From NCBI GenBank assembly GCA_035498405.1, contig DATKAE010000027.1:64154-128153 (forward strand): DNA of 64,000 nucleotides, given 5' to 3'. The notes beneath the pieces were generated by a model that made no database searches, was not told the origin of the DNA, and saw only the letters and a list, made by a program, of their open reading frames with translations. This DNA comes from Thermoanaerobaculia bacterium. GTDB lineage: Bacteria > Acidobacteriota > Thermoanaerobaculia > UBA5066 > Gp7-AA6. Position numbers and translations under genes: made by a program. This document shows positions 7,632-58,044 of the stretch, in pieces (the stretch's first letter is position 1; each line of letters begins with the position of its first letter).

Positions 7632-7738
7632 GCCCCACCGTCTCGGAATCGGGCGCGTCGCGACCGGGTTGTAGTATCCCGCCTTCGCCGTGGAGGCTCG
7701 CCCGGGACCGGACCCGACCCGGCAGCTTAAGGAGAGTC

Positions 7739-20026: not shown

Positions 20027-20048
20027 AATCCCATCGGGTTGAACGAGG

Positions 20049-27507: not shown

Positions 27508-28088
27508 GCTGTCCCACTCCGCGCGATTCCTCGAGTGAAAAGGCCGACGATCTCCGATACGAGCGCGTCGATCGTGTCGCCGTCCCTTCGGAAGATGTTG
27601 ATTCCCCGAACCATTCCCAGAAAAGCCTCGGCGGCGAGGAAGGGATCGACACCGCGGAACTCGCGGCGCTCGATTCCCGAGACGATCGCCTCTTGCGCGA
27701 GCTTCATGATTCGATCGTGCCGCTCCCGTAACCCTCCGCGACGCGTCGAGAGGTTGCGCTCGTCCCGGTAGAGAAGCATCAAGAGCGAGCGCTGGTGCCA
27801 GAAAAAGGAGAGCATCTCACGGGCGATCCGCTCGAGACGCCGCGTCGGCGAAACCTCCTGCGGCAAGGCGGTCAACAGCAGGTCGTGCAGCCGGTCGAGG
27901 CCCCGGAGAATCGTCGCAAAGTAGAGGTCTTCCTTGGTCCGGAAGTACCGATAGACAGTGCCTTTGCCGATTCCGCCGGCCTCCGCGATCTCGTCGATCA
28001 GGACGTGATGGAAGTCCTTCCGGGCAAAGACGCGCGAGGCGGCTTCCAGAATCTCTTCGTGTTTCTCGTCGGTCTTTACGCGGGGCAT
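27504..28088 (-). CDS. TetR/AcrR family transcriptional regulator
   Basis: N-terminal HTH 'IAEAGGIGKGTVYRYFRTKEDLY'. It is the first gene of the efflux operon. Confidence 0.9.
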   Translation of the reverse strand: MPRVKTDEKHEEILEAASRVFARKDFHHVLIDEIAEAGGIGKGTVYRYFRTKEDLYFATILRGLDRLHDLLLTALPQEVSPTRRLERIAREMLSFFWHQRSLLMLLYRDERNLSTRRGGLRERHDRIMKLAQEAIVSGIERREFRGVDPFLAAEAFLGMVRGINIFRRDGDTIDALVSEIVGLFTRGIARSGTA

Positions 28089-32924: not shown

Positions 32925-33316
32925 AGCGCATCGTCGTCGTCGATGACGAGCCGGGTGTCGGCACGGCGATCCGCGATCTGCTCTCGCCGGACGGATACGC
33001 CGTCGAGGCGCCGGGCGACGCTCGGGCCGCCCTCCCCGACCTCATCCGCGCGGCGCCGGATCTCCTGATTCTCGACGTCAACATGCCCGGAATGAGCGGC
33101 TGGGAGCTGTGCGCGATCCTGCGACGGCAAACCGCGACGCGCGGCGTTCCGATTCTGTTCCTGACGGGCCGCCGCGAGCTGAAGGACCGAATCACTGCCA
33201 TGCAGCTCGGGGGATCCGACTACCTGGCCAAGCCCTTCGGCGCCGACGAACTGCGCCGAAAGGTTCGCGCCGTTCTCGAGCGCGAACTCGAAGAGGGTCG
33301 ACCGGAGGAACAATGA
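32921..33316 (+). CDS. Single-domain response regulator (REC)
   Basis: 'IVVVDDEPG', 'LLILDVNMPGMSG' and 'KPF'. 4-nt overlap with the HK. Confidence 0.85.
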   Translation: MKRIVVVDDEPGVGTAIRDLLSPDGYAVEAPGDARAALPDLIRAAPDLLILDVNMPGMSGWELCAILRRQTATRGVPILFLTGRRELKDRITAMQLGGSDYLAKPFGADELRRKVRAVLERELEEGRPEEQ

Positions 33317-34677
33317 GCTCGAGACGCCGCACGGATCCGGTTCGCCTGGAGCCACGCCGCCAACCGGTCGCCGAAGACGTTTCGGCGAAAACGGTCGAGC
33401 GCCTTCGGCAGGAACGGTTGGTTTACGACGGGGTGACGGGGCTCCCGCTTCATCCGTTCGAGGATCCGGATCGGGCCTCCGCAATCGAGCGGATCGAGCG
33501 TCTCGGCGTGATCTATCTCCAAATCGGGAAGTTCTTCGGCTTCGAAGAGTTCTACGGCTGGGAGCTCTACGACCGCGTTCTTGTGGCGGTCTCGGAGGGC
33601 CTGCGCGCGGACGTGGAAGCCTCGCGCCTCTCTCCCCATTTCGTGTCGCTTCGCTACTCCGGCTCCGACGGCTTCTACGTGCTCTTCGATCTGCCGACCG
33701 TCGTCCGGGGACGCGCGCTCCCCTCGCTCGAGCGAGAGGCGCTGAACTTCCAGGAACGCGCGATGCGGCGTCTTCGCCAAACCTTCGGCGGAACCGCCGT
33801 CGACCTGATGAGCGTCCACGTTTCCAGTCTCATCGCCGACGACAATCCCCGCGTGCGCCCCGCCCGGCATCTGATCCGCAACCTGTCGGAGGCCGCCAAG
33901 ATCGTGTCTCAGCGTCAGACGCGGGAAAAGCTCGATCTGTGCGCGGAATTGAAGGGCGTGATCGGACGAAGGAAGCTCAAAGCCGCCTTCCAGCCGGTGC
34001 GCCACCTGCCCGACGGCCAGATCCTGGGTTACGAGGCCTTGATCCGGGGGCCGCAGGGAAGCTCGCTCGAACGGCCCAACGTTCTCTTCGCGGTCGCCAA
34101 CGAGAACGAGATGGGGATCGAGCTCGAGACCCTGTGCCTCGAGACGATCTTCCGCAGCCTGCCCAAGACGGTCAACACCGGGCGTCTCTTCGTCAACGCG
34201 TCCTCGCGCCTGCTGCGCCATCCGATCTTCCTCGACGAACGGAATCTGAAAGCGATCAACCGGAGCCACGCCGACGTCGTCGTCGAGATCTCGGAGAAGG
34301 AGATGGTGGGCGACTACTCGAGTTTTGCGGAAATCATTCGCACCATTCGGGGGTCGAAACTGAAGATCGCGATCGACGACGCCGGCTCCGGCTACTCGGG
34401 TCTCGAAACGATCCTGAATCTGCGCCCCGACTACATCAAGGTGGCCGACTCCCTGGTCCGCAACCTCGAGGAGGACCCCATCAAGCGGGAGATCATCGCG
34501 AGCCTCGCCGCGATCGGCAGCCGCATCGGGGCAATCGTCATCGCCGAGGGCATCGAAAGGGAAGAGGAGCGAAGGGCTCTAGTCGAGCTCGGTATCCCTT
34601 ACGGCCAGGGGTTCCTTCTGGGGAGGCCTGCTCTCCACGGTCCCGGCGGAAAGAAGCGGGTAGAGACCTCCCACTGA
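33313..34677 (+). CDS. Degenerate GGDEF-like plus EAL domain protein (putative c-di-GMP phosphodiesterase)
   Basis: ATG at 33313 overlaps the REC stop (ATGA). Shows 'YEALIRGP', 'EISE', 'DDAGSGYS' and 'EGIE'. The upstream domain lacks a GGDEF motif. Confidence 0.8.
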   Translation: MSSRRRTDPVRLEPRRQPVAEDVSAKTVERLRQERLVYDGVTGLPLHPFEDPDRASAIERIERLGVIYLQIGKFFGFEEFYGWELYDRVLVAVSEGLRADVEASRLSPHFVSLRYSGSDGFYVLFDLPTVVRGRALPSLEREALNFQERAMRRLRQTFGGTAVDLMSVHVSSLIADDNPRVRPARHLIRNLSEAAKIVSQRQTREKLDLCAELKGVIGRRKLKAAFQPVRHLPDGQILGYEALIRGPQGSSLERPNVLFAVANENEMGIELETLCLETIFRSLPKTVNTGRLFVNASSRLLRHPIFLDERNLKAINRSHADVVVEISEKEMVGDYSSFAEIIRTIRGSKLKIAIDDAGSGYSGLETILNLRPDYIKVADSLVRNLEEDPIKREIIASLAAIGSRIGAIVIAEGIEREEERRALVELGIPYGQGFLLGRPALHGPGGKKRVETSH

Positions 34678-44110: not shown

Positions 44111-46141
44111 TCAGTCGGCAGCGCGAACTCTCGCGAGGGACTTCGCCACTTCCGGCTGATCGGGCCTCAAGGCAAGTGAGCGCTCGAGCAGCCGGATGAC
44201 CGCCTGTCGATCGGCCAAACAGGTCTCGAAGAGCGCCAGATCGTTCATCGTCTGCGGATCGGTCGTGCTCGCCTCGAAGCGCGTGAGCGCCTCCACCGCG
44301 CCCCGGCAGTCCTTCGCACGATAGAGCAGCAAGGCAAGCTCGCGGGCGACCGCTTCGTTGGCAGGGTATGCCTTCGCCGCTCGGAGGAGCAGCGACTTGG
44401 CGGCGGCGGCCCTTCCGTCCCTCTGATACTCGCGCGCCCAGGAAGCGACGGCCGCCGCCGGGTCGGTCTTGAGCGCCGCGAGCGACCGCAAGAGCCACTC
44501 CTCGGCCGCGCGCGTGTCTCCCCGCTCGCGGTACAGCAGCGCGAGATTGAACATCGGCGAGTAGTAGCCCGGGTTGAGCCTCAAGGACTCGTCGAAGGCC
44601 CTTCGCGCGGCCGAGAAGTCCTTCCGCGTCTCGAGCTCATACATGCCGAGGTTGTTCCAGGCGCCTTCCGTCATCGCCGGCCGGTCGCCACCGGTCGGAG
44701 CCAGAGGCTGCGCCTGCCCCGGCGAAAGGTAACCGAGCGCCAGGAGCTTCCTGGCGTACTCGCTCGATTGCTCCGCTGACATCGTCGCGGCGGCGACACG
44801 GCGCACCACGAGGCCCGAGAAAACGTCTCTCTTCGGCACTGACGGGAGCTCGGAAAACGGCGCACGCAGCGGCGATCCGGGCATCCGCGAGTCGGCGGGA
44901 AGGTCCTGCAGTGCCAACACGGTCGGCGCCACGTCGAAAAGGCTCGCTCGGGACCGCTCCGGCGAGGGCACCACGCGACGACCCCAGGCCGCCAAGACGC
45001 CCTCCGGTCGGTGCCAGAAGGCGGCCGTGCTCCAGCTGCCCGACGCAAACCCGCAAGGCCGGTCCGCGCCCCACTTGAAGCCGTGGTCGGAGTGGACCAG
45101 CAGAGTTGCACCGTCCTCCTCCGCGCGCCGCATCCACTGCCCGAGGATTCGGTCGATCGCCGAGTAGTAGGTCTCGACGACGCGCCGGTACTTCGAAAAG
45201 TCTGCCTCGGAGACCGAGGCGCAGTCCGTGCGCGGCGGGGTGAACGGGGCGAAGAGGTGACCGACCTCGTCGGTGCCCTCGAAGTAAACCGCCTCGAGCT
45301 CGGGCAGATCGCGGTCGTACAGGTCGCGCGCGATCCGCTGCGTGATCCGAGTGGCGGCGAGAATGCGGGACAGCGCGACGATCGGATTCTCCATGCCGGC
45401 CCCCCCGGAGAGCGCGGCCTCGACCTCCGAGGAAGGCGCCTCGATGTACGCGGCGAGATCCCCGGCCGCAACACGCGCTTCGCGACGAACCACCTCCGCG
45501 ACACCGGCCTCGAGCGGCGCCGGGAAGGCGACGCCGGAAAGGGACAGCGCATCGAAGAGGATCGGGCTCGCATGATCGCTGACGAAGGAGCCGTTGACCT
45601 CCTCTGCCGGATGCGTCGCCCACCAGCCCACGACGCCGACCCTGCGCCCCCCGGCCGATGCCACATTCCAGACCGCCGGCACCGCGCGCGAGAACCCGGT
45701 GATCGGAACCTTGCGCCCCGTCTTCGGCTCCACCTCCTGGAAGTCGAGTACACGGTGAATGTCCGGCGCGACGCCCGTAGCGGCCGTCGTCCAGAGGATG
45801 GGCGAGATCAACGGAAAGAAACTCTGCAGCCTGGCCGAGTAGCCTTCCGCCGTCAGGCGCTTCCAGTTGGGCATTCGGCCCTCGGCCGCCAGGCGGTCGA
45901 GGAGCTCCCAGTCGAGCCCGTCGAGCCCGATCCAGATGACCGGGGGACGCGGGCCCGGCGGGCGTCTCGCGCGCGAGGAGACATCCGCCGACTCGACCGA
46001 TGAAGCCAGAGTCGACGCCGAAGAAACCGCTCGAGATCCCGCTTCCCTGTCGCGCTTCTCGCCGCCCCGACAAGAGACTGCGGCCAGGCCGGCCAACAGA
46101 AGCGTCGCGAGACGGTCACGCCGGCTCATCCGGCGCACCAT
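44111..46141 (-). CDS. Alkaline phosphatase superfamily (type I phosphodiesterase/nucleotide pyrophosphatase-like) protein with C-terminal TPR repeats
   Basis: Lipoprotein-like signal. 'VIWIGLDGLDWELLDRLAAEGRMPNWKRL' and 'HSDHGF' are present. The C-terminal TPR region includes 'AWNNLG'. An alternative ATG lies at 46129. Confidence 0.75.
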   Translation of the reverse strand: MVRRMSRRDRLATLLLAGLAAVSCRGGEKRDREAGSRAVSSASTLASSVESADVSSRARRPPGPRPPVIWIGLDGLDWELLDRLAAEGRMPNWKRLTAEGYSARLQSFFPLISPILWTTAATGVAPDIHRVLDFQEVEPKTGRKVPITGFSRAVPAVWNVASAGGRRVGVVGWWATHPAEEVNGSFVSDHASPILFDALSLSGVAFPAPLEAGVAEVVRREARVAAGDLAAYIEAPSSEVEAALSGGAGMENPIVALSRILAATRITQRIARDLYDRDLPELEAVYFEGTDEVGHLFAPFTPPRTDCASVSEADFSKYRRVVETYYSAIDRILGQWMRRAEEDGATLLVHSDHGFKWGADRPCGFASGSWSTAAFWHRPEGVLAAWGRRVVPSPERSRASLFDVAPTVLALQDLPADSRMPGSPLRAPFSELPSVPKRDVFSGLVVRRVAAATMSAEQSSEYARKLLALGYLSPGQAQPLAPTGGDRPAMTEGAWNNLGMYELETRKDFSAARRAFDESLRLNPGYYSPMFNLALLYRERGDTRAAEEWLLRSLAALKTDPAAAVASWAREYQRDGRAAAAKSLLLRAAKAYPANEAVARELALLLYRAKDCRGAVEALTRFEASTTDPQTMNDLALFETCLADRQAVIRLLERSLALRPDQPEVAKSLARVRAAD

Positions 46142-46207: not shown

Positions 46208-46285
46208 GGTGGGTGTAGCTCAGCTGGTTAGAGCGCCAGACTGTGGATCTGGATGTCGAGGGTTCGAATCCCTCCACTCACCCCA
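46208..46285 (+). tRNA. tRNA-His (anticodon GTG)
   Basis: Cloverleaf folded by hand. Has the extra G(-1) paired with the discriminator C, anticodon loop CTGTGGA, T-loop GGTTCGAATCC, and an encoded CCA. Confidence 0.9.
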
Positions 46286-46297
46286 AGTTCGTTCTTT

Positions 46298-46375
46298 GCG
46301 CCCGTAGCTCAGTCCGGATAGAGCGTTAGCCTCCGGAGCTAAAGGTCCCGCGTTCGAATCGCGGCGGGCGCACCA
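46298..46375 (+). tRNA. tRNA-Arg (anticodon CCG)
   Basis: Acceptor stem GCGCCCG/CGGGCGC, anticodon loop CTCCGGA, T arm CCGCG-TTCGAAT-CGCGG, and an encoded CCA. Confidence 0.9.
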
Positions 46376-46447
46376 CCTCCTCCAATGACTTAGCAGACCC
46401 CGACTCCTCCTCCGACTCCCGATTGTCCGTGTTTGGTCCGTGTTTGC
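46330..46447 (+). repeat. Direct repeat copy 1 (3' 46 nt of tRNA-Arg plus ~72 nt downstream)
   Basis: 46330-46375 is identical to 59685-59730. The following ~72 nt are about three-quarters identical and end in the shared tandem GTCCGTGTTTG x2. Confidence 0.75.
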
Positions 46448-46501
46448 TTTTCGGGACCAGCTGCCTTGCTGAGGTAACGCGTTTTTCGTCGCGAGCATTC
46501 T

Positions 46502-49087
46502 TCAGGCCGAGAGCTCGCGCTGGAGCCACTCCCGGGCCGCTGCCCACTTACGTTCAACCGTAGCGGGCGAGATTGCCATCGCCTTCGCGACCTCGTCGAT
46601 CGTCAGGCCGCCGAAGAACCGCAGCTCCACGACGCGACCCTGTTCCGGATCGAGCGCGGCGAGCTTCTTCAGCGCGTCGTCTACGGCGATAAGGTCGGCG
46701 TTGCGAGGCAGCGACATCGCCTCGGTCTCCAGCCGTGCCGGCACCTTCCCTCCGCCGCGCTTCTGTGCGGAACGCCGGCGGGCGTAATCAACCAGGATTT
46801 CGCGCATCGCCCGCGAGGCGACCGCGAAGAAATGAATGCGATTCTGCCAGTCTGCGTTTGGGCGGTTGACGAGCTTCAGATACGTTTCGTTGACGATCGC
46901 CGACGGTTGCAGAGTGTGCCCGGCCCTTTCACTGCGAAGGTGGCTTTCGGCCATCTGATGAAGGTCGCCGTGCACGAGGGAGATGAGCCTGTCGAAGGCG
47001 GATTTCTCCCCCGCCTGCCAGGCGAGGAGCAAGTCGGTGACGTTTTCGGGCTTCGGCGCGTCGTCCCGTCGATCATTCCTGGACGGCTCGCTCTCTTCGG
47101 GAAGCACCCCACTCTGGATGCCGGGACCGTCGAGAGTCTCGACGGCCTCCTCTGACTCCTGCCTTGCGCTTGCCTTCGCCGTCGACAGCAAACCGCCTGC
47201 GTCGGCCGACCATGCCTGCGAGGGCCAGCCCCGTCGTCCACCAGGCTCGCAGCGCTCGAGCAATTCCGCTACAGCGGTCGCCCATGCTTCGATGTCGGAC
47301 GGGCGATCCAACTTCGACTTTGCCAACGCCGCTTCGAAGAGGTGGTCGAGCTTCGGCGGTGAGCCGGGCAGGAAATCCGACAATGCCGGGGCGGACTCGA
47401 AGAGGACCTTCAGGATCACCTGCGCGACCTGCCTGCCCTGCACCATCTTGTGCCCGGTGGCCGCCTCCCAGGCGACGCAGGCCAGCGAGTAGACGTCTGA
47501 TCGCTCATCGAGGTCAGCCGATTGGACCTGCTCGGGCGACATGTAAGCCGGTGTCCCCACCGCGTTCCCGGCCTGCGTGAGGCGTGCCTCGAACCGGGCC
47601 GAGAGCGCCACTCCGAAGTCGAGCAGCTTCGCCTGGAAGCCGCCGGAATCGGCCACGAGGAAGATGTTTTCGGGCTTCACGTCGCGGTGAATCACGCCCG
47701 CGCGATGTGCGGCAGCGAGCGCCGCGCTGGTCTGCCGAAGGAATCGCGCCACTTGCTGTGGTGTTCCGGCACCGTACTCGACGAGGAGACTCGAAAGCTC
47801 TCTGCCCTTCAGCAGCTCCATCACGAGAAAGGCCGATCCGTCGTCCAGCTCGCCAACGTCGAAGAGAGCCGTCACACCCGGATGTTGAGCGCGCGCGATG
47901 ACCTTTGCCTCCCGCTCCAGCCGGACCCGCATCGCCGGGTCTCCGAGAAATGCTGCCTTGATGATTTTCAGCGCGACGTTGCGGTCGAGCTTTTCGTCGT
48001 AGGCTGCAAAGACCGTTCCCATCCCGCCTTCGCCCAGAAGTCTCTCGAAGCGGTACCGCTCGTTGACGCGAAACGGAAGAATCCGCGACGCGTCGAGTTC
48101 GGCGCCGTCGCGTGCGCACCGGGCCCCCGGGCCGCTCTCCCCCCGCCCCGTGTCGCCCGTGCAGGCGCGGCAGCGAGGGCAGACGAGCAGGGCCTCGATC
48201 CCGCGCTCGTGCATGGCCCGCCGTGTCATCGCTCGCTTCGCTTCGGCCTCGGACAACTGGCGCTTCAGGGAGCGCAATTCCAACGCCGTTCCGAGATGAT
48301 GGGCGAGACCGGAAATCACGCGACGCTGGGTATCGCCAAAAGAGCGTGCCGGGCCGTCGATGACGAGGGCCCCACACGGCTCGGTCATCATTCCCATGAC
48401 TGGCACGACGACCGAGCCGCCCGCTGCCATGAACTCGACGTTCGCCCCCGGACCCTTGAGGCGGTTGGCCGGGGGAGGAGACGTACCCCCCGCCGCGAGC
48501 GGCACTACCCGGTCTTCCTCCAGAGCCCAGACGCCGATTTCCTTCGCTCCGATGGAACGCGCGACCTCGGCTGCCATTGCCGCGGCCCAGGCCGAGGTGT
48601 CTTCGAGCTGACGCGACGACGCCGAGAGGCGGGAGATCTGGTCCTGTGCGATGCGGATCTGCTCGTAGGCTTCCTTCAGTTCCAGGTTCTTCGATTCGGT
48701 CTCGCGCTGTAGGCGCCAGATGGTGAGCTGGTTCTCCACCCGGGCTATGACTTCCTCCGCCTGAAACGGCTTCGTGACGTAGTCGACGCCTCCGGCTTTG
48801 AAAGCCTTGACCTTGTCCAGCGGCTCGTCCAGGGCGCTGATGAACACAACCGGGATGTCTCGCAGGGCGGCGTCGGCCTTCAGCTCACGGCACACCTCAT
48901 AGCCGTCCATCTCCGGCATGGTGATGTCGAGCATCACGAGCTCGGGACGCTGCGCCCGGATCATCGCGAGAGCTCTCTTTCCCGTGTTTGCCGCACGCAC
49001 CCGAAGGCCGGCGCCGCGCAGAATCCCGGCCAGCAGCGAGAGGTTGCCAGGATTGTCGTCAACGAGGAAGATTTCGCCCGTCATCAC
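46502..49087 (-). CDS. REC - GAF-like - Ser/Thr protein kinase - ECF sigma factor (PF07638/TIGR02999-like) fusion protein
   Basis: Single 861-aa ORF. REC domain ('FLVDDNPGN', 'MLDITMPEMDG', 'KPF'). Coiled coil plus a GAF-like segment. Cys cluster 'CPRCRAC'. Kinase domain (GEGGMGTVF, VALKIIK, HRDVKPEN, DFG, 'GTPAYMSPEQ'). C-terminal sigma region ('LLLAWQAGEKSAFDRL', 'IVNETYLKLV', 'ELRFFGGLTIDEVAKAMAISPATVERKW'). Start is GTG 49087 or ATG 49084. Confidence 0.85.
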   Translation of the reverse strand: MMTGEIFLVDDNPGNLSLLAGILRGAGLRVRAANTGKRALAMIRAQRPELVMLDITMPEMDGYEVCRELKADAALRDIPVVFISALDEPLDKVKAFKAGGVDYVTKPFQAEEVIARVENQLTIWRLQRETESKNLELKEAYEQIRIAQDQISRLSASSRQLEDTSAWAAAMAAEVARSIGAKEIGVWALEEDRVVPLAAGGTSPPPANRLKGPGANVEFMAAGGSVVVPVMGMMTEPCGALVIDGPARSFGDTQRRVISGLAHHLGTALELRSLKRQLSEAEAKRAMTRRAMHERGIEALLVCPRCRACTGDTGRGESGPGARCARDGAELDASRILPFRVNERYRFERLLGEGGMGTVFAAYDEKLDRNVALKIIKAAFLGDPAMRVRLEREAKVIARAQHPGVTALFDVGELDDGSAFLVMELLKGRELSSLLVEYGAGTPQQVARFLRQTSAALAAAHRAGVIHRDVKPENIFLVADSGGFQAKLLDFGVALSARFEARLTQAGNAVGTPAYMSPEQVQSADLDERSDVYSLACVAWEAATGHKMVQGRQVAQVILKVLFESAPALSDFLPGSPPKLDHLFEAALAKSKLDRPSDIEAWATAVAELLERCEPGGRRGWPSQAWSADAGGLLSTAKASARQESEEAVETLDGPGIQSGVLPEESEPSRNDRRDDAPKPENVTDLLLAWQAGEKSAFDRLISLVHGDLHQMAESHLRSERAGHTLQPSAIVNETYLKLVNRPNADWQNRIHFFAVASRAMREILVDYARRRSAQKRGGGKVPARLETEAMSLPRNADLIAVDDALKKLAALDPEQGRVVELRFFGGLTIDEVAKAMAISPATVERKWAAAREWLQRELSA

Positions 49088-51681
49088 GCCTCCACGCCGA
49101 CCTTCTCAAGCAGACTAAGCAACTGGTCAACCTGGAAGCCGGCGATCGCTTCCTTGAGCGCGTCGCCAAGCGCAGGGTCCGCCGACTGGATCGCCGCGAC
49201 AAGCTTCCCGGCTGCCTCGTCGTCCCCGATGTCGAGGGCCCCGCGCAGCGGCGCCAGAAGCCCGGAAGGCAGTGCAGACAGCCGGGCCACAGTCAAAACG
49301 CCGGACGCCGGTGCGGCGCTCCCCGCGACCTCTGCTTCGTACTCGAAGCGAACGCCGAGGTGGACCGAGAGCTTCTCGAAGACGGCAGCCTCGCGAAACG
49401 GTTTCGCGAGAAAGTCATCGCAGCCGCTTTCGACGACTACCGCTCGCTCGTGCTCGAGGGCGCTCGCCGAAAGCGCGACGACCTTGACCGGCGTCCGCCC
49501 TCCCGCCGCCGTGCTCGCCTCGGCCTCGCGAATTGCCTTCGTCGCCGTCAGACCGTCCATGACCGGCATGCGCATGTCCATCCAGATGAGGTGGGGTTGA
49601 AATTCGCGCCACAGCTCGACCGCCTGCTCGCCGTTGGTCGCTTGCCGTACCTCGAAGCCGACGGACTCGAGAAGCTTCGCCAGGAGAATGCGGTTCTCCG
49701 GGACGTCGTCTACGACGAGAAGCCGGAAGGCGGGTTGGCCCACCGCAAGCCCGACCACGGTCCGCTCCTCCTCCAGGTACCGGGCGCTCTCGCCCTCTGC
49801 CACAAGCGGTAAGAGAGCGGTGACGGTGAACGTCGAGCCATGCCCCCGTTCGCTCCCGACGGTGACATCGCCTCCCATCAGCCGCGCAAAGTTCCGGCTG
49901 ATCACGAGGCCAAGGCCCGTCCCTTCCTTTGCCTTCTCCCCGGTCGCAGTTTGCACGAAGGGTTGGAAGAGCTTGGCGAGCTCTTCCGGCGTCATTCCAG
50001 GGCCCGTGTCCTCCACCTCAAGGGTTCCTTTGCCCTCGCTCCAGGAGACCCGCAGGACGACCCGGCCCTTCTTGGTGAACTTGATGGCGTTTCCCATCAG
50101 GTTGATGAGAATCTGTCGCAGCTTGCTCTCGTCTCCGACGATCGCTCGCGGCGGAGACGAGAGCGGCTCGAACACGAAGTCGAGACCCTTGGCCTCGCAC
50201 CGGGGTCTGAGCATCTCTGTAAGGCCCTCGAGAAACGGGAGCAGGTCGAACCTCGCCGGGCTCAAGCTCTCTTTTCCCGCCTCGATCTTGGACAACGACA
50301 GCACGTCGTTGATGAGGTCGAGAAGATGCTCACCGCTGCGCAAGATGATCCGCAGGTGCTCCCGATGGTCACGGGGCAAGGAGCGGTCTCGGTCCATCAG
50401 CTGCGCAAAACCGATGACCGCGTTGAGCGGGGTCCGGAGCTCGTGGCTCATGTTCGCGAGGAACACGCTCTTGGCTCGATTCGCGGCCTCGGCCCGCGCG
50501 CGCTCGGTCTCCGCCTCGGCGCTGTGCTGGTCCGCGGCCTTTCGAGCGACCTCGGCGTCCTGGAGGGCCGCGCGCAAATCGTGCGTGCGCTCCTCGACTT
50601 TGCGCTCGAGCTGGCCGTAGGACTCCTTCAGCTGCACGGCCATGCTGTTGAATTGGCCGGCCAGGCCCTCCAACTCATCGCCCGTCCTCACGTCGATCGA
50701 CTGATCGAGCTGGCCCGCTCCGATGCGCGCGGCGCCAGCTTGCATCGCGCGGATCGGCTCGACCATGCGGCGCGCCAGAAACACGCCGGCGACGACGGAG
50801 GACACCAAGCCGACGAGGAGCAGCAAGCCTGTTCGCCGAAGCGAGGCATCCAGCGTCGCAAACGCCTCCTTCAGCGGCTGTTCGACGAAGACATGCCAGC
50901 CGAGCGGCTGAATGCTCGCGTAGGCGGCCAGAACCTCTCGCCCGCGCGGGTCGCGCGCGATCGAGACCTGCTGGCTCTCGTCGTTCTCCTTTGCTCCGAG
51001 GGCAAGGCGCACCTGGGGAAGCGCGGACAGATCCAGATTTTTCAGCACCTGGCTGATGTCGGGGTGTGCGATCAACCGGCCGCGGCCGTCGATCACGTAG
51101 GCGAGGCCGTTCTGACCGATCTTGATACGCGAGATGACGTCCCAGATGAATTTCAGATTCACTTCGGCAACGGTGATGCCGGCCGCCTCGCTGCTTCCAG
51201 CGACGGCGATCGTTATGTAGGGTTCCGTTTCCTTTCGGAAGTAGACGGGGCTGAAGTAGGTCTTTCCGGAAAGCGGTACGGTGACCCTGGGGTCGGACGA
51301 AAAGTCCGCGTCGCTGCTGGCGACATTCATGCTGAGCCGCGAAACGTGGAGCTGCTCCCTACCCTTTCGGTCGATCTGCGAGACGTCTGTGATCGCCTGA
51401 ACCTGGCGAAGCAACCGAAGGTATTCGAAGCGGCGCTCTTCGGGGCCGGCCTCGCCGAGCTGCGGCATCCCCAGCCAGCCAATCTCGTGCTCGATCTCGA
51501 GAACGTAGGCTTCGATCCGCGAGGCCGCGGCGCCCGCCTTCTCGCGTTGGAGGCGGAGTAGCTCATCGCGATTCTCGCGGTAGTTGGAGTAGACGCCGAT
51601 CGCCCCGCTCGCGATCAGGGCGAGAGTGACGAGCACCGCGAAGGAAGCGGCGTACTTGAGGAAGAGCGAGCCGCGGCGCAT
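49084..51681 (-). CDS. Hybrid sensor histidine kinase (TM - Cache-like periplasmic domain - TM - HAMP - HisKA - HATPase_c - REC)
   Basis: H-box 'MSHELRTPLNAV'. 'DTGPGM' and 'GTGLGL'. REC domain 'LLVVDDVPENR...WMDMRMPVMDG'. HAMP motif 'PIRAMQAGAARIGAG'. Confidence 0.9.
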   Translation of the reverse strand: MRRGSLFLKYAASFAVLVTLALIASGAIGVYSNYRENRDELLRLQREKAGAAASRIEAYVLEIEHEIGWLGMPQLGEAGPEERRFEYLRLLRQVQAITDVSQIDRKGREQLHVSRLSMNVASSDADFSSDPRVTVPLSGKTYFSPVYFRKETEPYITIAVAGSSEAAGITVAEVNLKFIWDVISRIKIGQNGLAYVIDGRGRLIAHPDISQVLKNLDLSALPQVRLALGAKENDESQQVSIARDPRGREVLAAYASIQPLGWHVFVEQPLKEAFATLDASLRRTGLLLLVGLVSSVVAGVFLARRMVEPIRAMQAGAARIGAGQLDQSIDVRTGDELEGLAGQFNSMAVQLKESYGQLERKVEERTHDLRAALQDAEVARKAADQHSAEAETERARAEAANRAKSVFLANMSHELRTPLNAVIGFAQLMDRDRSLPRDHREHLRIILRSGEHLLDLINDVLSLSKIEAGKESLSPARFDLLPFLEGLTEMLRPRCEAKGLDFVFEPLSSPPRAIVGDESKLRQILINLMGNAIKFTKKGRVVLRVSWSEGKGTLEVEDTGPGMTPEELAKLFQPFVQTATGEKAKEGTGLGLVISRNFARLMGGDVTVGSERGHGSTFTVTALLPLVAEGESARYLEEERTVVGLAVGQPAFRLLVVDDVPENRILLAKLLESVGFEVRQATNGEQAVELWREFQPHLIWMDMRMPVMDGLTATKAIREAEASTAAGGRTPVKVVALSASALEHERAVVVESGCDDFLAKPFREAAVFEKLSVHLGVRFEYEAEVAGSAAPASGVLTVARLSALPSGLLAPLRGALDIGDDEAAGKLVAAIQSADPALGDALKEAIAGFQVDQLLSLLEKVGVEA

Positions 51682-52661
51682 TACTCGATCACCTTGTTCG
51701 CCTGCAAGAGCAGCTCCGGCGGGATGGTCAGGCCAAGCGTCTTCGCCGTCCGAACATTGATGAAGAGATCGATGCGCGTCGGTTGTTCGACGGGGAGGTC
51801 GGCTGGATTCGCACCCTTCAAGATTTTCGAGACGAGACCCGCAGCCTTCCTGTAGAGATCTCTCCGGTTCGGGCCGTATCCCATCAACCCGCCATGGTCG
51901 GCGTACTCGGGGTAGCCGCTCATGGAAGGCAGGCCGTACTTCGCCGCCAGCTCCGCGATCTGCCGACTCTGCTGGAAGAGGAAGGAGTCGACGAGCCAGA
52001 CGAGAGCCTCGGCCTTCTCGGCCGCTGCTCTTGCCAGGGCAGTTTCAATCTCCGCGGGCGTTTTCGCCTCGAAGCTGAGGAGTCGGATCCGCCGAAGGCG
52101 GGACGCCTCGACGACTCCCTTGAGCACGGAGCCCATCGCCGGGTTGAAGAGCACCGCCACCGAAGAGAGCTTCGGCACCCACGCCGTGAGGAGCTCGAGC
52201 TGCTTGGCCGCCGTGTCGCTCAACAGCAGGGAGCAGCCGGTCGTATTGCCTCCGGGGTGAGCGAGGCTCTTCACCAGCCCATCCGCCACCACGTCGCCGC
52301 CTCCAACGAACACAATGGGAATTGTCTTCGTCGCTCCCTGCGCCGCGCGCGTGCCGGGCGTTCCGTCGGCCACGATGACGTCGACCGGCATCCTCGTGAG
52401 CTCATCCGCCAGGGCCGGAAGACGCGTGTAGTCGCCGCCCCCGAACCGCCACTCGATGACGAGGTTCTTCCCTTCGACGTAGCCTAGCTCGGCCAGGGTC
52501 GCCGGGACGGCGCCCCACGGGCTCGAATCGAGCGGCTCGGGCCGGGTGCGCGTCATTAGGCAGCCGACCCGCCAGATCCTATCGGCCTTCTGTCCTAGCG
52601 CGCCGCCCGGCGCCAGCAGCGCGGTGCACAGAAAGACAATCCCTCGTCGCTGAGGCTTCAT
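51681..52661 (-). CDS. PF04392-type ABC substrate-binding protein paralog 1 (orphan)
   Basis: Signal peptide. 'WRVGCL', 'HPGGNTTG' and the C-terminal 'ILKGANPADLPVEQPTRIDLFINVRTAKTLGLTIPPELLLQANKVIE'. Confidence 0.85.
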   Translation of the reverse strand: MKPQRRGIVFLCTALLAPGGALGQKADRIWRVGCLMTRTRPEPLDSSPWGAVPATLAELGYVEGKNLVIEWRFGGGDYTRLPALADELTRMPVDVIVADGTPGTRAAQGATKTIPIVFVGGGDVVADGLVKSLAHPGGNTTGCSLLLSDTAAKQLELLTAWVPKLSSVAVLFNPAMGSVLKGVVEASRLRRIRLLSFEAKTPAEIETALARAAAEKAEALVWLVDSFLFQQSRQIAELAAKYGLPSMSGYPEYADHGGLMGYGPNRRDLYRKAAGLVSKILKGANPADLPVEQPTRIDLFINVRTAKTLGLTIPPELLLQANKVIE

Positions 52662-53656
52662 TCGATCACCTTGTCCGCCTGAACGAGCAGCTCCGGCGGG
52701 ATCGTCAGCCCGAGGGCCTTCGCCGTCGTACCGTTGATGAGGAACTCGATCTTGGTCGGCTGTTCTACGGGGATGTCTGCGGGCTTTGCACCTTTGAGGA
52801 TCTTGTCCACCAGCCTCGCCGCGTGCCGATAGCCATCCAGCAAGCTCATTCCGTATCGAACGAGACCGCCCGCCTCGACGCCTTCACGGCTGCACACCAT
52901 GGAACCGGTCCGGTTGTCCAGAGCGAGTCTCGCGATGAGTCTCGAGTGCCCGAGGAAAACGGGGTCTTCAGGAACGAGGAGGGCCTCGGCGCGCGCGGCC
53001 CGAATCTGGTTGATGCCCGGCTCGATCTCCTCTCGGTTCCTCACCGAGACCGGCAGCACGCGAGTCCCGATCACGCGTGCCGCGTCCTCCGCACTCTTCA
53101 GCATCGCCCGATGCGCCGGAGTGTCGGGGTTCACGAACACGGCGAGTTTGGACAGGGCCGGAATCAGCTCCTTCAGGATCTCGACACGTTTCGAAGTGAG
53201 CTCGATGGCGAGCAGAGACATCCCTGTCGTATTCCCGCCGGGATGAGCGAGGCTCTCGATGAGGTGATTCCCTACAGGATCTGTAATTGCGGCGAAGACT
53301 ATGGGCGTCGTCCGCGTCGCGCCCTGAAGAGCCTGAGTCGCCACAACGCTGTGCGTCACCAGAACGTCGGGGCTCGTCCTGGTGAGGTCCCCGGCGAGCG
53401 CCGGGAGCCGATCGGCATGATCCTCGGCAAAGCGCCACTCGATGACGAGGTTCTTGCCCTCGACGTAGCCGAGGCCGCGCATCTCGCTCACGAAGGCGTC
53501 GTAGTAGACGTCCGGATGGGACGGGGTCGAAGGGAAGCGCGTCCCGAGAAATCCGACCCGATAAATCCTCTCCGGCGGCCTCGCAAAGACCGGCTGGGAC
53601 GCGAGGAAGGCCGCGGCCAAGCATGCGACGCCGATCCAAGGTTTCACGAGCTTCAC
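52658..53656 (-). CDS. PF04392-type ABC substrate-binding protein paralog 2 (orphan)
   Basis: Same family signature, ending '...LLVQADKVIE'. GTG start. 4-nt overlaps with both neighbours. Confidence 0.85.
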   Translation of the reverse strand: MKLVKPWIGVACLAAAFLASQPVFARPPERIYRVGFLGTRFPSTPSHPDVYYDAFVSEMRGLGYVEGKNLVIEWRFAEDHADRLPALAGDLTRTSPDVLVTHSVVATQALQGATRTTPIVFAAITDPVGNHLIESLAHPGGNTTGMSLLAIELTSKRVEILKELIPALSKLAVFVNPDTPAHRAMLKSAEDAARVIGTRVLPVSVRNREEIEPGINQIRAARAEALLVPEDPVFLGHSRLIARLALDNRTGSMVCSREGVEAGGLVRYGMSLLDGYRHAARLVDKILKGAKPADIPVEQPTKIEFLINGTTAKALGLTIPPELLVQADKVIE

Positions 53657-54624
53657 TCGATCACCTTGTCCGCCTGCACGAGGAGATCCGCGGGGATGGT
53701 CAGCCCCAGCGCCTTGGCGGTCTTTCTATTGACGACAAAGGCGAACGTCGTCGGCTGCTCGACGGGGAGATCTCCGGGGTTCGCGCCACGAAGGACCTTG
53801 TCAACATAGACGGCCAGGTACCTCCACATGGCCCGCTGGCTCGCGCCGTAGCTCATCAATCCACCGACCGACGGGTAGAGGGCGTCCGTCGTGATGGACG
53901 GCAGCCTGTGCTTTGCCGAGAGGTCAGCGATCAAGCGAGCTTGCTGGTTGAGGAACGGATCCGAGATCCAGTACAGCGCCCCGACTCGGCCGGCTTCCAA
54001 TCCGGAGAATGCCCCCTCGATGTCGGCAGGCGTCCCCGCCTGGACCGATACGACCGTGATGCCCCTCGACTCCGCCGCCGTCTGGAAGTTCTTCAGATGC
54101 CCCACATGGGCCCCATTGGCAGGGTTGGACAGGACGCCGACCCGCGACAGCCGGGGCACCATCCGACTCAGCATTTCGAGGTCTTTGACGCCGACATCGC
54201 GCAAGAGGACCGAGATCCCGGTCGCGTTTCCTCCTGGGTGCGCCAGGCTCTTGACGAGGCCGTTCTCTACCGCACCGCCGACCACGAAGACGATCGGGAT
54301 CGCTTGCGTCACCTTCTCCGCCGCTCCGGCGGCCGGGGAAGCGTCGGCGACGAGGACGTCCACAGGAAGCCGCACGAGGTCTGCCGCAAGCGCAGGCAAC
54401 CGGCTGTAGTCGCCGTCGGCGACCCGATACTCCACGGCCAGATTCCTTCCCTCCACGTAGCCGCGTTCGCGCAGCCCATCGATCAGCGCCTCGAGGACTT
54501 CCGGACGGCGACTGGGCGCGAGGATTCCGACACGCCAGACCTTCGCCGCCTCTTGCGCTGGGCCACCCCGAGGCAGGGCAACGAGGCAGATCAGCGCGGC
54601 GAGAATCCGGCACCGCATCCTCAC
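53653..54624 (-). CDS. PF04392-type ABC substrate-binding protein paralog 3 (orphan)
   Basis: Same family signature. Start is GTG 54624 or ATG 54618. Confidence 0.85.
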   Translation of the reverse strand: MRMRCRILAALICLVALPRGGPAQEAAKVWRVGILAPSRRPEVLEALIDGLRERGYVEGRNLAVEYRVADGDYSRLPALAADLVRLPVDVLVADASPAAGAAEKVTQAIPIVFVVGGAVENGLVKSLAHPGGNATGISVLLRDVGVKDLEMLSRMVPRLSRVGVLSNPANGAHVGHLKNFQTAAESRGITVVSVQAGTPADIEGAFSGLEAGRVGALYWISDPFLNQQARLIADLSAKHRLPSITTDALYPSVGGLMSYGASQRAMWRYLAVYVDKVLRGANPGDLPVEQPTTFAFVVNRKTAKALGLTIPADLLVQADKVIE

Positions 54625-55619
54625 TCGATCACCCTGTCGGCCTGGAGGAGGAGCTCCGGCGGGATCTCGAGGCCTAACGCCTTGGACGTCTTTCGATTGA
54701 TGACGAGCGCGAGCGTTGTCGGTTCCTGAACCGGCAGATCGCCGGGGTTGGCACCCTTGAAGATCCTGTCGACGTATTCCGCGATGCGCCGCCAGATCGC
54801 GGGGCGGTTGGGTCCGTAGCCCATCAGACCGCCAACCTCCGGATACTCAGTGGTTCCGCTCGTCGACGGTAGTCGGTATCTCTCCGCCAGCTCCGCGATC
54901 TGGCGCTGCTGCTGGATAAAAAAGGCGTCGACCGCCCAGATCAATGCCTGTGGGTGCTCTTTCGCCGCCCGTAAGAACGCACCCTCGATCTCCTGCGGTG
55001 TGCGCGCGTCGAAGAAGAGAATCTGAACCTTGGCCGCCTCAGCCGCACGCTGAAAGTCCTTCTGCACCATGGCCATCGACGAGTTCGCGGAATTAACCAG
55101 AATAGCCAACCGGGAGAGTTTCGGGACAGCGGTCGTGAGAAGCTCGAGCTGCTTTCCGATTGTGTCCCCGAACAGGAGAGTGAACCCAGTGGTGTTGCCT
55201 CCCGGGTGGGCGAGGCTCTTCACGTAGCCCTGAGCAACGACGTCGGTTCCGCCAACGAACACGATCGGTATCTTGCTCGTCGCCTCTTGCGCCGCGCGGA
55301 TGCCGTCTGATGCTGCGGTTACGATGACGTCGACGCGGCGACCCACCAAGTCAGCGGCCATTCCCTGGAGGCGCCCATAGTCGCCCGCGGCGAAGCGCCA
55401 TTCGAAGGACACGTTCTTGCTCTCGACGTACCCGAGCTCTCGCAGGCGCCGCAGAAACTGGCCGTAAAGCGGGTGCGACTCGACGGATTCGGGACGCTGG
55501 CGGACGTCCAGGATGCCGATGTGCCACACCTTCTCTGGCTGCTGAGCGAAAGAGAAAGCCGGAAGAGCCAAAAGAACGGCGATGCTCAGAAGCAGCCAGG
55601 AAGCACGGCGAAAGCTCAT
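54621..55619 (-). CDS. PF04392-type ABC substrate-binding protein paralog 4 (orphan)
   Basis: Same family signature, ending '...LLLQADRVIE'. ATGA overlap with paralog 5. Confidence 0.85.
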   Translation of the reverse strand: MSFRRASWLLLSIAVLLALPAFSFAQQPEKVWHIGILDVRQRPESVESHPLYGQFLRRLRELGYVESKNVSFEWRFAAGDYGRLQGMAADLVGRRVDVIVTAASDGIRAAQEATSKIPIVFVGGTDVVAQGYVKSLAHPGGNTTGFTLLFGDTIGKQLELLTTAVPKLSRLAILVNSANSSMAMVQKDFQRAAEAAKVQILFFDARTPQEIEGAFLRAAKEHPQALIWAVDAFFIQQQRQIAELAERYRLPSTSGTTEYPEVGGLMGYGPNRPAIWRRIAEYVDRIFKGANPGDLPVQEPTTLALVINRKTSKALGLEIPPELLLQADRVIE

Positions 55620-56611
55620 TCGACAACCTTGTCAGCCAGCACGAGCAGCTCCGGCGGGATGGTCAGGCCGAGCGCCTTGGCCGTCCTTCGATTGAAGACG
55701 AGTTCAAGCGTGGTCGGTTGCTCGACAGGAAGGTCGGCAGGATTGGCGCCCTTCAGGATCTTGTCGACGTAGACGGTCGCCCTGCGGAAGTTCTCTGCCA
55801 GGTTCTGCCCGTAGCTCATGAGACCACCCGCGGCGGGGTAATACCGATCGCTACCCATGCTCGGCAATCGATGGCGCAATGCCAGATCGGCGAAGAGTCG
55901 GCGCTCCTGATAGAAGACGCGGTCGCGGGTCAGGATGAAAGCCGAAGCGCCTCGCGTCGTCATGGCCGAAAGCGCATTCTCGATGTCCCCCTCGCTCCGG
56001 ACCTCCGCTGGAACAAGAGGAATGTTGCGGGTGGATGCGGCGGCCTGGAACGCCTTCAAAGACACGGCCGCGAGCGGGTTGGCCGGATTCAACAGGAGGC
56101 CGATGCGCGCCGGAGTGGTCGCGAGACTGAGAAGGATCTCCAACTGTTTCGCCGCCGTATCAGTCGTGATGAGCGAGATCCCAGTCGCGTTGCCCCCAGG
56201 ATGTGTCAGGGTCTTGACGAGGCCGTTTCCGACGGGATCGCCAGCGCTGGCGAAGACGATCGGAACCGACGTTGTCGCCTTCAGTGCCGCCAGGGTGGGG
56301 GGTGTGCCGTCGGTCACGATCACCGCGACGCCGAGTCCCACGAGCTCATTGGCCAGCTCCGGGAAGCGTTCGTAGCGCCCGTCGGCGAAGCGCCACTCGA
56401 TGACCAGGTTCTTGCCTTCGACGTAACCGAGCTCGCGAAGGCCGAGAACGATCTGGCCGTAGTGCTCGTCTTGTTGCACGTTGTAAGGCCGGCGAACAGA
56501 CGCGAGGACACCCACTCGCCAAACCTTGGTTCCGCCGGCGGCGTAGGAGCCAGACCGCGTGGCGAGAAACGCGACACCGAACGAGCCCAGCAACTCACGG
56601 CGTGTGATCAT
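55616..56611 (-). CDS. PF04392-type ABC substrate-binding protein paralog 5 (orphan, Tat-like leader)
   Basis: ATG 56611 gives 'MITRRELLGSFGVAFLA'. The alternative TTG 56668 would overlap paralog 6 by 8 nt. Confidence 0.8.
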   Translation of the reverse strand: MITRRELLGSFGVAFLATRSGSYAAGGTKVWRVGVLASVRRPYNVQQDEHYGQIVLGLRELGYVEGKNLVIEWRFADGRYERFPELANELVGLGVAVIVTDGTPPTLAALKATTSVPIVFASAGDPVGNGLVKTLTHPGGNATGISLITTDTAAKQLEILLSLATTPARIGLLLNPANPLAAVSLKAFQAAASTRNIPLVPAEVRSEGDIENALSAMTTRGASAFILTRDRVFYQERRLFADLALRHRLPSMGSDRYYPAAGGLMSYGQNLAENFRRATVYVDKILKGANPADLPVEQPTTLELVFNRRTAKALGLTIPPELLVLADKVVE

Positions 56612-56660
56612 CCGATTGCTCTGGCCCGGTGCATGTTCTTCACGCCTGCGCCTTCGCTCC

Positions 56661-57677
56661 CTAGTCAATGATCTGGTCTGCTTGCAGCAACGTCACCGGC
56701 GGAATTTGGATGCCGAGAGCCTTGGCCGTCTTTCGGTTGATGACGAGTTCGAATGCCATCGGCTGTTCGACGGGCAGATCGGCAGGACTCGTACCCTTCA
56801 GAATCCGGTCGACGTAGAAAGCGGCTCGCCGCCACTGCTCCGATAGCTTCGCGCCATAGGACATCAAGGCGCCATCCTGGACGAACTCCCTAAGAGCCGC
56901 CACCATCGGTAGTCGGCGACCGATCGCAAATTCGGCGATCTCTCGAGCGTGCGCCTGAAGGAAGGCGTCCCAGACACAGATCAGTGCGTCGGGAGACCCA
57001 CTCGCGATTTGCGTAAAGGCATTCTCGAGCCCAGCCGGGTCGCTTGCTGCAACGGCCTGGACGGCGAGACCAGCCTTGGGAGCAGCGATGTTGATCTCCT
57101 GCTCGGCGAGGATGTTGTTTGGGTTCGTTCGGTTGAGGAGCAAGGTCGCTCGCGAAAGCCTGGGAAGAACTTCCTTGAAGAGCTGCAGACGCTTCCCCCA
57201 GAGCTCGGCGCCCAACGCGGCCACGCCCGTGACGTTTCCGCCCGGCCGGGCGAGGCTCTGAACGAGCCCGGTGCGGGTGGGATCGCTACCGATTCCGACC
57301 ATGACGATTGGAACCGTTCGCGTGACGTCCTTCGCAGCAAGGACGGAGGGGGTGCCGCTCGCAACGATGACGTCCACTTTCGATCCAATGAGCTTGGCGG
57401 CGCGGGCCGGAAGCGCTTCGACCGTTGCTTCCGAGTAGCGATACTCGAAGACGACGTTGCCTCCCTCGATCCAACCGAATTTGCGAAGCTCGGCGCGGAA
57501 AGCCCCGATCAGGGCAGGGTCGACAGCGTACCCGAGGACTCCAATGCGGCGGACCTGAGCCCGCTCAGTTGACGCGCTTTGCGCGACCGCACTGAAGGGG
57601 AACGTCGAGAACAGCAGGAGGAGAAGCGCGAACGAAAGAAACCGCGTAGTGACGTTTCCTCCGCCGGAAACAGTCAT
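56661..57677 (-). CDS. PF04392-type ABC substrate-binding protein paralog 6 (orphan, most divergent)
   Basis: ATG 57677 gives 'MTVSGGGNVTTRFLSFALLLLL...'. Ends '...TLLQADQIID'. The ORF-track start at 57878 was rejected. Confidence 0.8.
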   Translation of the reverse strand: MTVSGGGNVTTRFLSFALLLLLFSTFPFSAVAQSASTERAQVRRIGVLGYAVDPALIGAFRAELRKFGWIEGGNVVFEYRYSEATVEALPARAAKLIGSKVDVIVASGTPSVLAAKDVTRTVPIVMVGIGSDPTRTGLVQSLARPGGNVTGVAALGAELWGKRLQLFKEVLPRLSRATLLLNRTNPNNILAEQEINIAAPKAGLAVQAVAASDPAGLENAFTQIASGSPDALICVWDAFLQAHAREIAEFAIGRRLPMVAALREFVQDGALMSYGAKLSEQWRRAAFYVDRILKGTSPADLPVEQPMAFELVINRKTAKALGIQIPPVTLLQADQIID

Positions 57678-57862
57678 GGCTTCTTGCCGGCCTTTGCCAG
57701 GAGAGCCTCGAAGCAAGGATGGGGCTTGAGCGGCTCCCAGCGTGGTGGGTCGAGACGCAGCGCGTGCGTTGCAGGCCCGAGGGCTCGGGCACCGCCAAGC
57801 TTCTCCTCTTCGTCGGCCATGGGGGATCTGGTTGAAAAAAAGTCTATCCCAAAGGGTCGCAC

Positions 57863-57892
57863 ACCCTCTCAAGCGCAAATGAGAGGGTTTTT
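57863..57892 (+). terminator. Orphan terminator-like hairpin ACCCTCTCA-agcgcaaa-TGAGAGGGT followed by T5
   Basis: 9-bp stem plus a T-run on the plus strand, inside the divergent intergenic region. No plus-strand gene lies upstream. Confidence 0.3.
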
Positions 57893-58044
57893 CGCTCTCT
57901 TGCGCCTTTAAGGTCTAGAGGGAGCCGCTCAACCTCTTGTTAATGCCGGGAGGTTGTGAAGGCTCAGATGGAAGCGCTGCCGGAGTAATACCATTGCGGC
58001 ACGTTCGCCCCCTCCGCGCATCGCAATGACACAGGGAGGAAGGA

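Follow-up and report, generated by a model that had tools for sequence, protein, structure and literature searches.

A two-component receiver, a Hanks-type kinase and an ECF sigma factor joined in one bacterial protein

The fusion gene and its domains

The window analysed here, a stretch of 64,000 nucleotides from a Thermoanaerobaculia bacterium (assembly GCA_035498405.1, contig DATKAE010000027.1, positions 64,154 to 128,153), carries at 46502-49087 a gene whose predicted product joins a two-component receiver, a GAF-like module, a Hanks-type Ser/Thr kinase and an extracytoplasmic function (ECF) sigma factor. The original prediction for this stretch, made from the letters alone, had described an uninterrupted open reading frame (ORF) of 861 codons with coherent domain content, without giving a strand. 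We find the same single unbroken ORF, which lies on the minus strand, and its domain content is indeed coherent. The ORF opens with GTG-ATG and ends at the stop codon 46502-46504; it counts 861 codons from the GTG, whereas gene callers pick the ATG at 49084-49082, the probable start, which gives a product of 860 aa. This ATG overlaps by one base the TGA stop of the histidine-kinase gene upstream. Pfam profile searches of the protein return Response_reg at aa 6-117 (E = 1e-27), Pkinase at aa 345-597 (E = 5e-42), Sigma70_ECF (PF07638) at aa 681-860 (E = 2e-53) and Sigma70_r4_2 at aa 807-855. In an AlphaFold model of the full-length protein (mean predicted local distance difference test score, pLDDT, 79.6), the order is a receiver, a helix of ~70 residues, a four-stranded alpha/beta module, a helix of ~40 residues, a Cys beta-ribbon, a canonical kinase, a disordered stretch at residues 631-679 and a helical sigma domain. 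An alignment mixing full-length proteins with free-standing sigma factors, also tried for structure prediction, misplaced the sigmas and was dropped.

The receiver (REC) domain occupies aa 6-117 (48737-49072, minus strand, as for all parts of the gene). Its residues D10, D11, D54, S84 and K106 are all present, with D54, encoded at 48926-48928, sitting within MLDITMP, the motif in which a phospho-acceptor Asp had been predicted. Across 41 relatives D54 and K106 are invariant, and D10 and D11 are kept in at least 90%. The receiver is followed by a long signalling helix (~aa 110-179), a GAF-like alpha/beta module (~aa 183-244) and a second long helix (~aa 252-294), together encoded at 48203-48733. 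For this region, the earlier description of a coiled coil plus a GAF-like segment finds some support in the fold and is weaker by sequence than had been stated. The GAF_3 profile covers aa 219-270 only and scores below its gathering threshold (19.6 bits against 27; E = 1.3e-3). However, an AlphaFold model of aa 118-345 (pLDDT 89.3) drew only GAF domains among its top 50 Foldseek matches in the PDB, among them those of PDE6, CyaB2, PDE2A, phytochromes and DosS/DosT, and these matches are weak (E = 9e-4 to 2e-2, TM score ~0.5). Pfam GAF matches are found in more distant homologues of the module (P0075, P0085 and P0087). With just four strands within ~65 residues, the module is best described, on the basis of these models, as a reduced GAF-like fold.

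Between the second helix and the kinase lies a four-cysteine beta-ribbon (48056-48202), C303-P-x-C306-x-x-C309 ... C324, recognised by conservation and by short beta strands in the AlphaFold model. The cysteine cluster foreseen at aa ~303-324 is thus a conserved feature of the family: the same 41 relatives, some as little as 37% identical, all have C303, C306 and C324, and at least 90% of them also have C309. From its sequence, the ribbon is a putative zinc or redox site, at which a metal may bind.

The Hanks-type Ser/Thr kinase domain (aa 345-605, 47273-48055; Pkinase E = 5e-42) keeps every catalytic motif, namely the Gly-loop G352-G357, K374 (VALK), E393, H467-R468-D469, N474, D490-F-G (490-492) and SPE (517-519), and it has T504 in the activation loop. 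Foldseek matched the kinase model to PknB and PknA with target-normalised TM scores of 0.85-0.91, and also to PknS, the kinase of the ECF43 sigma factor EcfK. Judged by these residues, the kinase appears to be active. The profile, the residues and the fold match all agree with the original prediction of intact motifs at aa ~345-605, and every motif residue that it had named in the receiver, kinase and cysteine cluster is present. The predicted acidic linker of ~75 residues is likewise there (aa 606-680, 47048-47272), with an acidity that is only mild (15 D/E versus 9 K/R). It is predicted to be disordered, with pLDDT below 50 for residues 631-679, and among the fused relatives described below it is only 33-42% identical and contains indels, every one of them in frame.

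The C-terminal domain (aa 681-861, 46505-47047) is a complete ECF sigma domain of the TIGR02999/PF07638 type, comprising regions 2 and 4. The proposal of a complete sigma region 2/4 at aa ~682-860 depended on significant sigma profile matches in these last ~180 residues, and the matches, including that to Sigma70_r4_2, are strong. Against PF07638 the domain reaches 181.5 bits (cutoff 21.1), covering profile positions 2-184 of 185, and against the NCBIfam model TIGR02999, "ECF-type sigma factor", it reaches 209.4 bits (cutoff 126.15), covering positions 3-183 of 183. When aligned with 43 free-standing members of the family, the fused sigma retains all 50 invariant columns, including those in regions 2.4 and 4.2, and it aligns with these proteins from end to end at 58-70% identity. 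Its best database matches are free-standing TIGR02999 sigmas of 190-199 aa that are 60-72% identical. An arrangement of a sigma gene with a kinase gene defines the kinase-associated ECF groups (PMC7826278), and in three genomes the free-standing sigmas P0151, P0125 and P0131 are each followed directly by a kinase gene that overlaps the sigma stop codon.

At the position of the acidic DAED/DxxD motif of ordinary ECF sigmas, the fused sigma has QPSA (aa 727-730). In ordinary ECF sigmas this acidic motif of region 2.2 contacts the beta-prime subunit. Ser729 (codon 46901-46903), the predicted phospho-acceptor, corresponds in an alignment to the TAED Glu of the ECF sigma in PDB entry 6dxo. The motif of the sigma family at this position is GHTLQP[S/T]A; among 196 members the four-residue site is QPTA in 83, QPSA in 55 and QTTA in 24, the rest being minor variants, and its third residue is Ser or Thr in 192. 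The ECF43 consensus is QTTA, whose second Thr serves as phospho-acceptor (PMC13147305), and phosphorylation at this position activates both EcfP, by PknT, and EcfK, at T51 in the motif QATE, by PknS (PMC8999054, PMC13147305). By its motif, its kinase pairing and its lack of an anti-sigma factor, features read from sequence, the fused sigma is ECF43-like. The connection that the original prediction had drawn to ECF43-type sigmas and to EcfP-PknT is strengthened both by QPSA at the DAED position and by the overlapping kinase genes beside free-standing relatives.

Selection, origin and rarity

The identical fusion protein is found on 7 contigs from different assemblies and sources, and three further proteins (P0002, P0003 and P0004), 75-78% identical to it, have the same four-part architecture. 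The ORF is continuous in both fused relatives for which DNA is available. Because the identical protein recurs on 7 contigs and the architecture is kept in diverged relatives, the fusion is not an artefact. In a codon-level comparison of the fused relatives, the ratio of nonsynonymous to synonymous divergence (dN/dS) is 0.04-0.12 for the receiver, 0.09-0.12 for the kinase, 0.11-0.15 for the sigma part and 0.24-0.64 for the linker, with synonymous divergence near saturation (dS ~0.65-3.0 over domains and pairs). The sigma part is under purifying selection. It is 73-78% identical among the fused relatives, whereas the receiver and kinase parts are 84-93% identical, and the G+C content at third codon positions (GC3) is even over all domains of the protein. 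The gene encodes a genuine cytoplasmic protein, kept by selection, that holds three signalling systems in one chain.

Next in similarity come P0005-P0017, REC/GAF-like/kinase proteins of ~650 aa that are 64-73% identical to the fusion protein and carry no sigma domain; they terminate inside the region corresponding to the linker. More distant unfused members occur in metagenome-assembled genomes of Vicinamibacterales, Gemmatimonadales and Dehalococcoidia. The unfused loci share the operon, with an array of PF04392 genes, a dCache-HAMP hybrid histidine kinase and a REC-kinase gene with overlapping stop and start, and the upstream gene context of the fused loci is the same. No sigma gene was found near the unfused REC-kinase genes in the loci examined. 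The linker of the fusion protein is made up of the tail of the unfused kinases and a segment that matches in length the N-terminal leader of the free-standing sigmas. When a neighbour-joining tree was built with 120 free-standing sigmas and 6 sigma-kinase fusions, the sigma domains of the four fused proteins grouped as a clade of their own and were therefore acquired once. On this sequence comparison, a complete sigma gene is best described as having been joined once, end to end, onto the 3' end of a receiver-controlled kinase gene and inherited since.

Seven other single-chain fusions of a PF07638 sigma with a kinase were found in metagenomes, all with the sigma first and none with a receiver. 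This bears out two points of the original prediction, that PF07638 sigmas often lie N-terminal to the kinase, and that here the order is reversed and a receiver and GAF-like module are added. Profile, metagenome and protein-index searches returned no kinase-then-sigma order, and no combination with a receiver, outside the four-member clade, and a metagenome scan with the junction region returned no additional fused examples. Four sequences are nonetheless a lower bound, as sigma-only and junction queries of a large protein index missed P0001-P0004 themselves. In a library clustered at 50% identity, the cluster of the fused protein is represented by the unfused P0010. A whole-library search with kinase and sigma profiles, whose top 150 were mostly multi-kinase proteins, was not exhaustive for the kinase-then-sigma order, and a genome-collection scan with the whole protein was flooded by generic receiver-domain patterns, with best matches just 37-44% identical. 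Rare C-terminal domain additions can thus hide behind the word indexing and clustering of databases. Literature searches, incomplete in their coverage, turned up no account of a REC/GAF-like/kinase/sigma architecture. The receiver-kinase-sigma fusion is rare, seen in four related sequences of one small clade of uncultured bacteria, which to judge by the names of more distant matches are probably Acidobacteriota.

The operon and its surroundings

The gene immediately upstream (49084-51681, minus strand), whose stop overlaps the start of the fusion gene, encodes a hybrid sensor histidine kinase with Pfam dCache_1, HAMP, HisKA, HATPase_c and REC domains, and it holds the same position in every related locus examined. 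The best NCBIfam resemblances of this histidine kinase are to TorS, BarA and LuxQ. TorS and LuxQ sense via binding proteins. Upstream of the histidine-kinase gene are six tandem PF04392 substrate-binding-protein paralogues (51681-57878, minus strand), with no permease or ATPase gene, and such arrays precede the histidine kinase in L001, L004, L091 and L102, in fused and unfused loci alike. Their NCBIfam likeness to the tryptophan-binding protein TrpX is well below the cutoff. The analogy with TorT-TorS and LuxP-LuxQ suggests that the tandem binding proteins are candidate periplasmic co-sensors of the histidine kinase. In the unfused locus L001, the array and the histidine-kinase gene are separated by an insertion on the opposite strand (4583-5253) that comprises a gene for a PIN-domain toxin and a small gene upstream of it. 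In L004, the locus of the fused P0002, gene calling divides the histidine kinase into two ORFs of 465 and 377 aa (5400-8004) and likewise splits one binding-protein gene in two (2453-3438), which suggests frameshifts or sequencing errors; the fusion gene there is intact. A phage-type integrase gene and a tRNA-Asn gene lie 3-4 kb downstream in L004.

Directly past the stop codon of the fusion gene, on the opposite strand, are genes for tRNA-His(GTG) and tRNA-Arg(CCG) (46209-46285 and 46298-46375, plus strand). A tRNA-His/tRNA-Arg pair is kept in another fused locus (coordinates L093 2551-2722 and L102 5710-5876), and the unfused loci L001, L090 and L091 have no tRNA at the corresponding place. 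The next gene (44111-46141, minus strand) encodes a type I phosphodiesterase/nucleotide pyrophosphatase with C-terminal TPR repeats and is conserved downstream in two fused lineages (L093 4645-6624 and L102 6211-7974); in L093, two ABC-transporter genes separate it from the tRNA genes. It is a candidate member of the regulon. Besides these two tRNA genes and the phosphodiesterase-TPR gene, no anti-sigma gene was seen downstream, and no anti-sigma domain occurs among the neighbouring gene products, so that the original remark that no anti-sigma gene is visible stands. A 92-aa ORF at 46220-46498 (minus strand), considered as a small anti-sigma gene, is spurious, as it overlaps the two tRNA genes.

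A GGAAC-N-CGTCC pattern and a TCGTCCGAC motif, both seen upstream of two free-standing sigma genes, show no enrichment in the window. The 11-mer CCTTAAAGGCG occurs once in the window (57903-57913, minus strand), just upstream of the operon's first binding-protein gene. A single copy is also found in L005 (5937-5947, plus strand) and in its duplicate L006, where it precedes a free-standing sigma gene belonging to the same family by 54-64 nt, and the unrelated loci L037 and L057 have one copy apiece. With 0.65 matches expected in the window at no more than 1 mismatch, the 11-mer might be a promoter element or might be there by chance.

The scanned ORFs of the window include no free-standing PF07638 sigma gene. 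They do include three further Hanks-type kinase genes on the plus strand (13098-15668, 15877-18540 and 20039-21670), two of them ending in PD40/WD40 beta-propellers. In the third, the kinase profile is matched over its N-terminal half alone (positions 14-139 of 263), with TPR repeats after it, and this gene may be truncated or encode a pseudo-kinase. An RND efflux system (21699-28088, minus strand), with an AcrB-type pump carrying a fused N-terminal extension, an outer-membrane factor and a TetR regulator, seems unrelated to the fusion, as does an EAL-domain protein (33109-34677, plus strand).

A possible relay to RNA polymerase, its alternatives and its precedents

As the best-supported reading, we propose a serial relay that would run from the histidine kinase to Asp54 of the receiver, on to the Hanks-type kinase, to Ser729 and to RNA polymerase. 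We infer each of its phosphotransfer steps, and we put the probability of the relay as a whole at roughly 0.5. In such a relay, the upstream dCache hybrid histidine kinase would sense a periplasmic signal, probably together with the tandem binding proteins, and phosphorylate Asp54. The resulting change would travel via the long helices, the GAF-like module and the four-Cys ribbon and switch on the Hanks-type kinase, which would then phosphorylate Ser729, in the QPSA of region 2.2, either in cis, via the flexible linker of ~75 residues, or across a dimer. As in EcfP/PknT and EcfK/PknS, the negative charge would allow the sigma to dock on RNA polymerase at the beta-prime clamp helices and to direct transcription. 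The sigma may act tethered or after release.

A more demanding version of this proposal is that the full-length protein phosphorylates itself at Ser729 under control of its receiver and that the sigma enters RNA polymerase while still tethered to the receiver and kinase. We regard this version as possible and, on balance, doubtful. If true, a two-component signal, Ser/Thr phosphorylation and promoter selection would be linked inside one polypeptide, and an active protein kinase would be carried to the transcription complex. To have an activating kinase built in and to receive direct His-Asp input would be a first for a sigma factor, and the protein would let the licensing of ECF sigmas by phosphorylation be studied in a natural single chain.

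Several observations weigh against the relay or its tethered version. The first concerns the input. Control by the upstream hybrid histidine kinase, which the original prediction had proposed, fits the overlap of stop and start and the conserved operon order. However, this histidine kinase is a hybrid with its own receiver and without an HPt domain, and its tail (residues 771-865; 49084-49380, minus strand), helical and ~95 residues long, shows no HPt motif and holds no histidine; the route of phosphate to the fused receiver is therefore uncertain. The second concerns the structural model, in which the sigma part, with a shallow alignment, reaches only moderate confidence (pLDDT 55-85) and from which no information on contacts between domains can be drawn. 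The third concerns the output. A choice between ECF43 and the sister kinase-linked groups (ECF59-62, 217 and 283) could not be made from motif and pairing alone, and the site itself, QPSA, differs from the QTTA consensus. Moreover, a T51A mutant of EcfK still works, and a second site in the linker between regions 2 and 4 matters (PMC13147305), so Ser729 may be neither the sole nor the decisive site; the corresponding stretch of the fused protein, RLETEAMS, contains Ser, Thr and Glu. Finally, the N-terminal extensions described for ECF sigmas are short or cleaved, as in BldN, and an extension of 680 residues is without characterised precedent (PMC7826278).

In an alternative that we consider rather unlikely, the fusion is a precursor or sequestration device and the sigma becomes active only once it is released, by proteolysis of the linker, as in BldN, or by an internal start. 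The receiver-kinase part would then be a covalent inhibitor or a co-expression partner, and phosphorylation could take place before or after release. A disordered, fast-evolving linker would suit such a device, and an in-frame GTG at codon 661 (window position 47107) would yield a product of 201 aa, the size of the free-standing relatives. However, this GTG is not conserved in the other three fused proteins, and no protease gene is conserved beside the locus. Furthermore, a separate sigma would not require an open frame through a variable linker, yet the frame is open in all four lineages.

It is improbable, in our view, that the C-terminal domain is no longer a sigma factor and has become a tethered pseudo-substrate, docking element or decoy that regulates the kinase or titrates a partner, in which case the true output would be to phosphorylate other proteins, presumably as the unfused relatives do. 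Those relatives manage without a fused sigma, which means that the kinase has to have further substrates or outputs; PhyR, in which a receiver is joined to a sigma-like domain for mimicry, is a precedent (PMC8999054); and divergence is faster in the sigma part than in the receiver and the kinase. Set against this are the retention of all 50 invariant positions, regions 2.4 and 4.2 included, a TIGR02999 score far above the cutoff, a dN/dS of the sigma part as low as that of the kinase, and a neighbourhood with no NepR-like partner gene. That errors of assembly or sequencing, or recent pseudogene-like read-through, created the long ORF out of two genes is effectively excluded, since the metagenomic origin of the sequences and the split neighbours in L004 are outweighed by the identical protein on 7 contigs, by the in-frame linker indels of three relatives with the same architecture, and by uniform GC3 and purifying selection on both sides of the junction.

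The relay has its closest counterparts in two two-protein systems, EcfP-PknT of Vibrio parahaemolyticus and EcfK-PknS of Xanthomonas citri. In both, as in the fused protein, the sigma lacks the acidic DAED/DxxD motif and has Ser or Thr at the third position, its partner is a Hanks-type kinase, and there is no anti-sigma factor; in EcfP and EcfK, phosphorylation provides the charge for binding to beta-prime (PMC8999054, PMC13147305). The site in EcfP and EcfK is Thr, whereas the predicted site in the fused protein is Ser. In addition, each of those systems consists of two proteins, with a transmembrane receptor kinase and extracytoplasmic sensor input, whereas here a single cytoplasmic chain places the kinase first and takes its input from a two-component receiver and a GAF-like module. 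The sigma-then-kinase fusions (P0294, P0379, P0380, P0386, P0392, P0411 and P0456) have a sigma of the same family, 48-60% identical, attached to a Hanks-type kinase. However, their sigma comes first, the order to be expected if a sigma gene were read through into its usual kinase neighbour, and receiver, GAF-like module and Cys ribbon are all missing from them; the kinase of the fused protein is from another, receiver-controlled lineage. The unfused REC/GAF-like/Cys-ribbon/kinase proteins are alike over the first ~650 residues and lie in the same operon, but they end in the linker with no sigma nearby, so that their output is presumably phosphorylation of separate substrates.

Two other systems resemble the fused protein in part. 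PhyR, of the alphaproteobacterial general stress response, also combines a receiver and an ECF-sigma-type domain in one polypeptide, by which a two-component system is tied to ECF sigma control (PMC8999054). In PhyR, however, the sigma-like domain is N-terminal, acts as a mimic that binds the anti-sigma factor NepR, and is not accompanied by a kinase domain, whereas the sigma of the fused protein is C-terminal, keeps the residues invariant in its family and has no NepR-like gene nearby. BldN (ECF121) is an ECF sigma with extra N-terminal sequence (PMC7826278), but its pro-sequence is removed by proteolysis and has no signalling domains, in contrast to the 680-residue receiver/GAF-like/kinase extension found here. 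N-terminal extensions of ECF sigmas are uncommon and generally shorter than C-terminal ones, and the sole well-described case is the cleaved pro-sequence of BldN (PMC7826278).

Taken together, these comparisons suggest that a known two-protein switch from kinase to sigma factor appears here fused into one chain, in reversed order and with a receiver-controlled kinase. It is usual to view two-component systems, Ser/Thr kinases and ECF sigma factors as separate signalling routes, and to our knowledge a phosphorylation-activated sigma of the ECF43 type has been shown for few pairs only. If the relay is correct, the natural serial wiring of all three would be independent evolutionary support for Hanks-type kinases and ECF43-like sigmas as enzyme-substrate pairs, in a compact system in which D54, K374 and S729 could be addressed within one construct. 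An ECF sigma with such a large N-terminal signalling extension would also constitute a class outside the current ECF classification. The fusion extends the mechanism known from EcfP-PknT and EcfK-PknS and does not reveal a new one.

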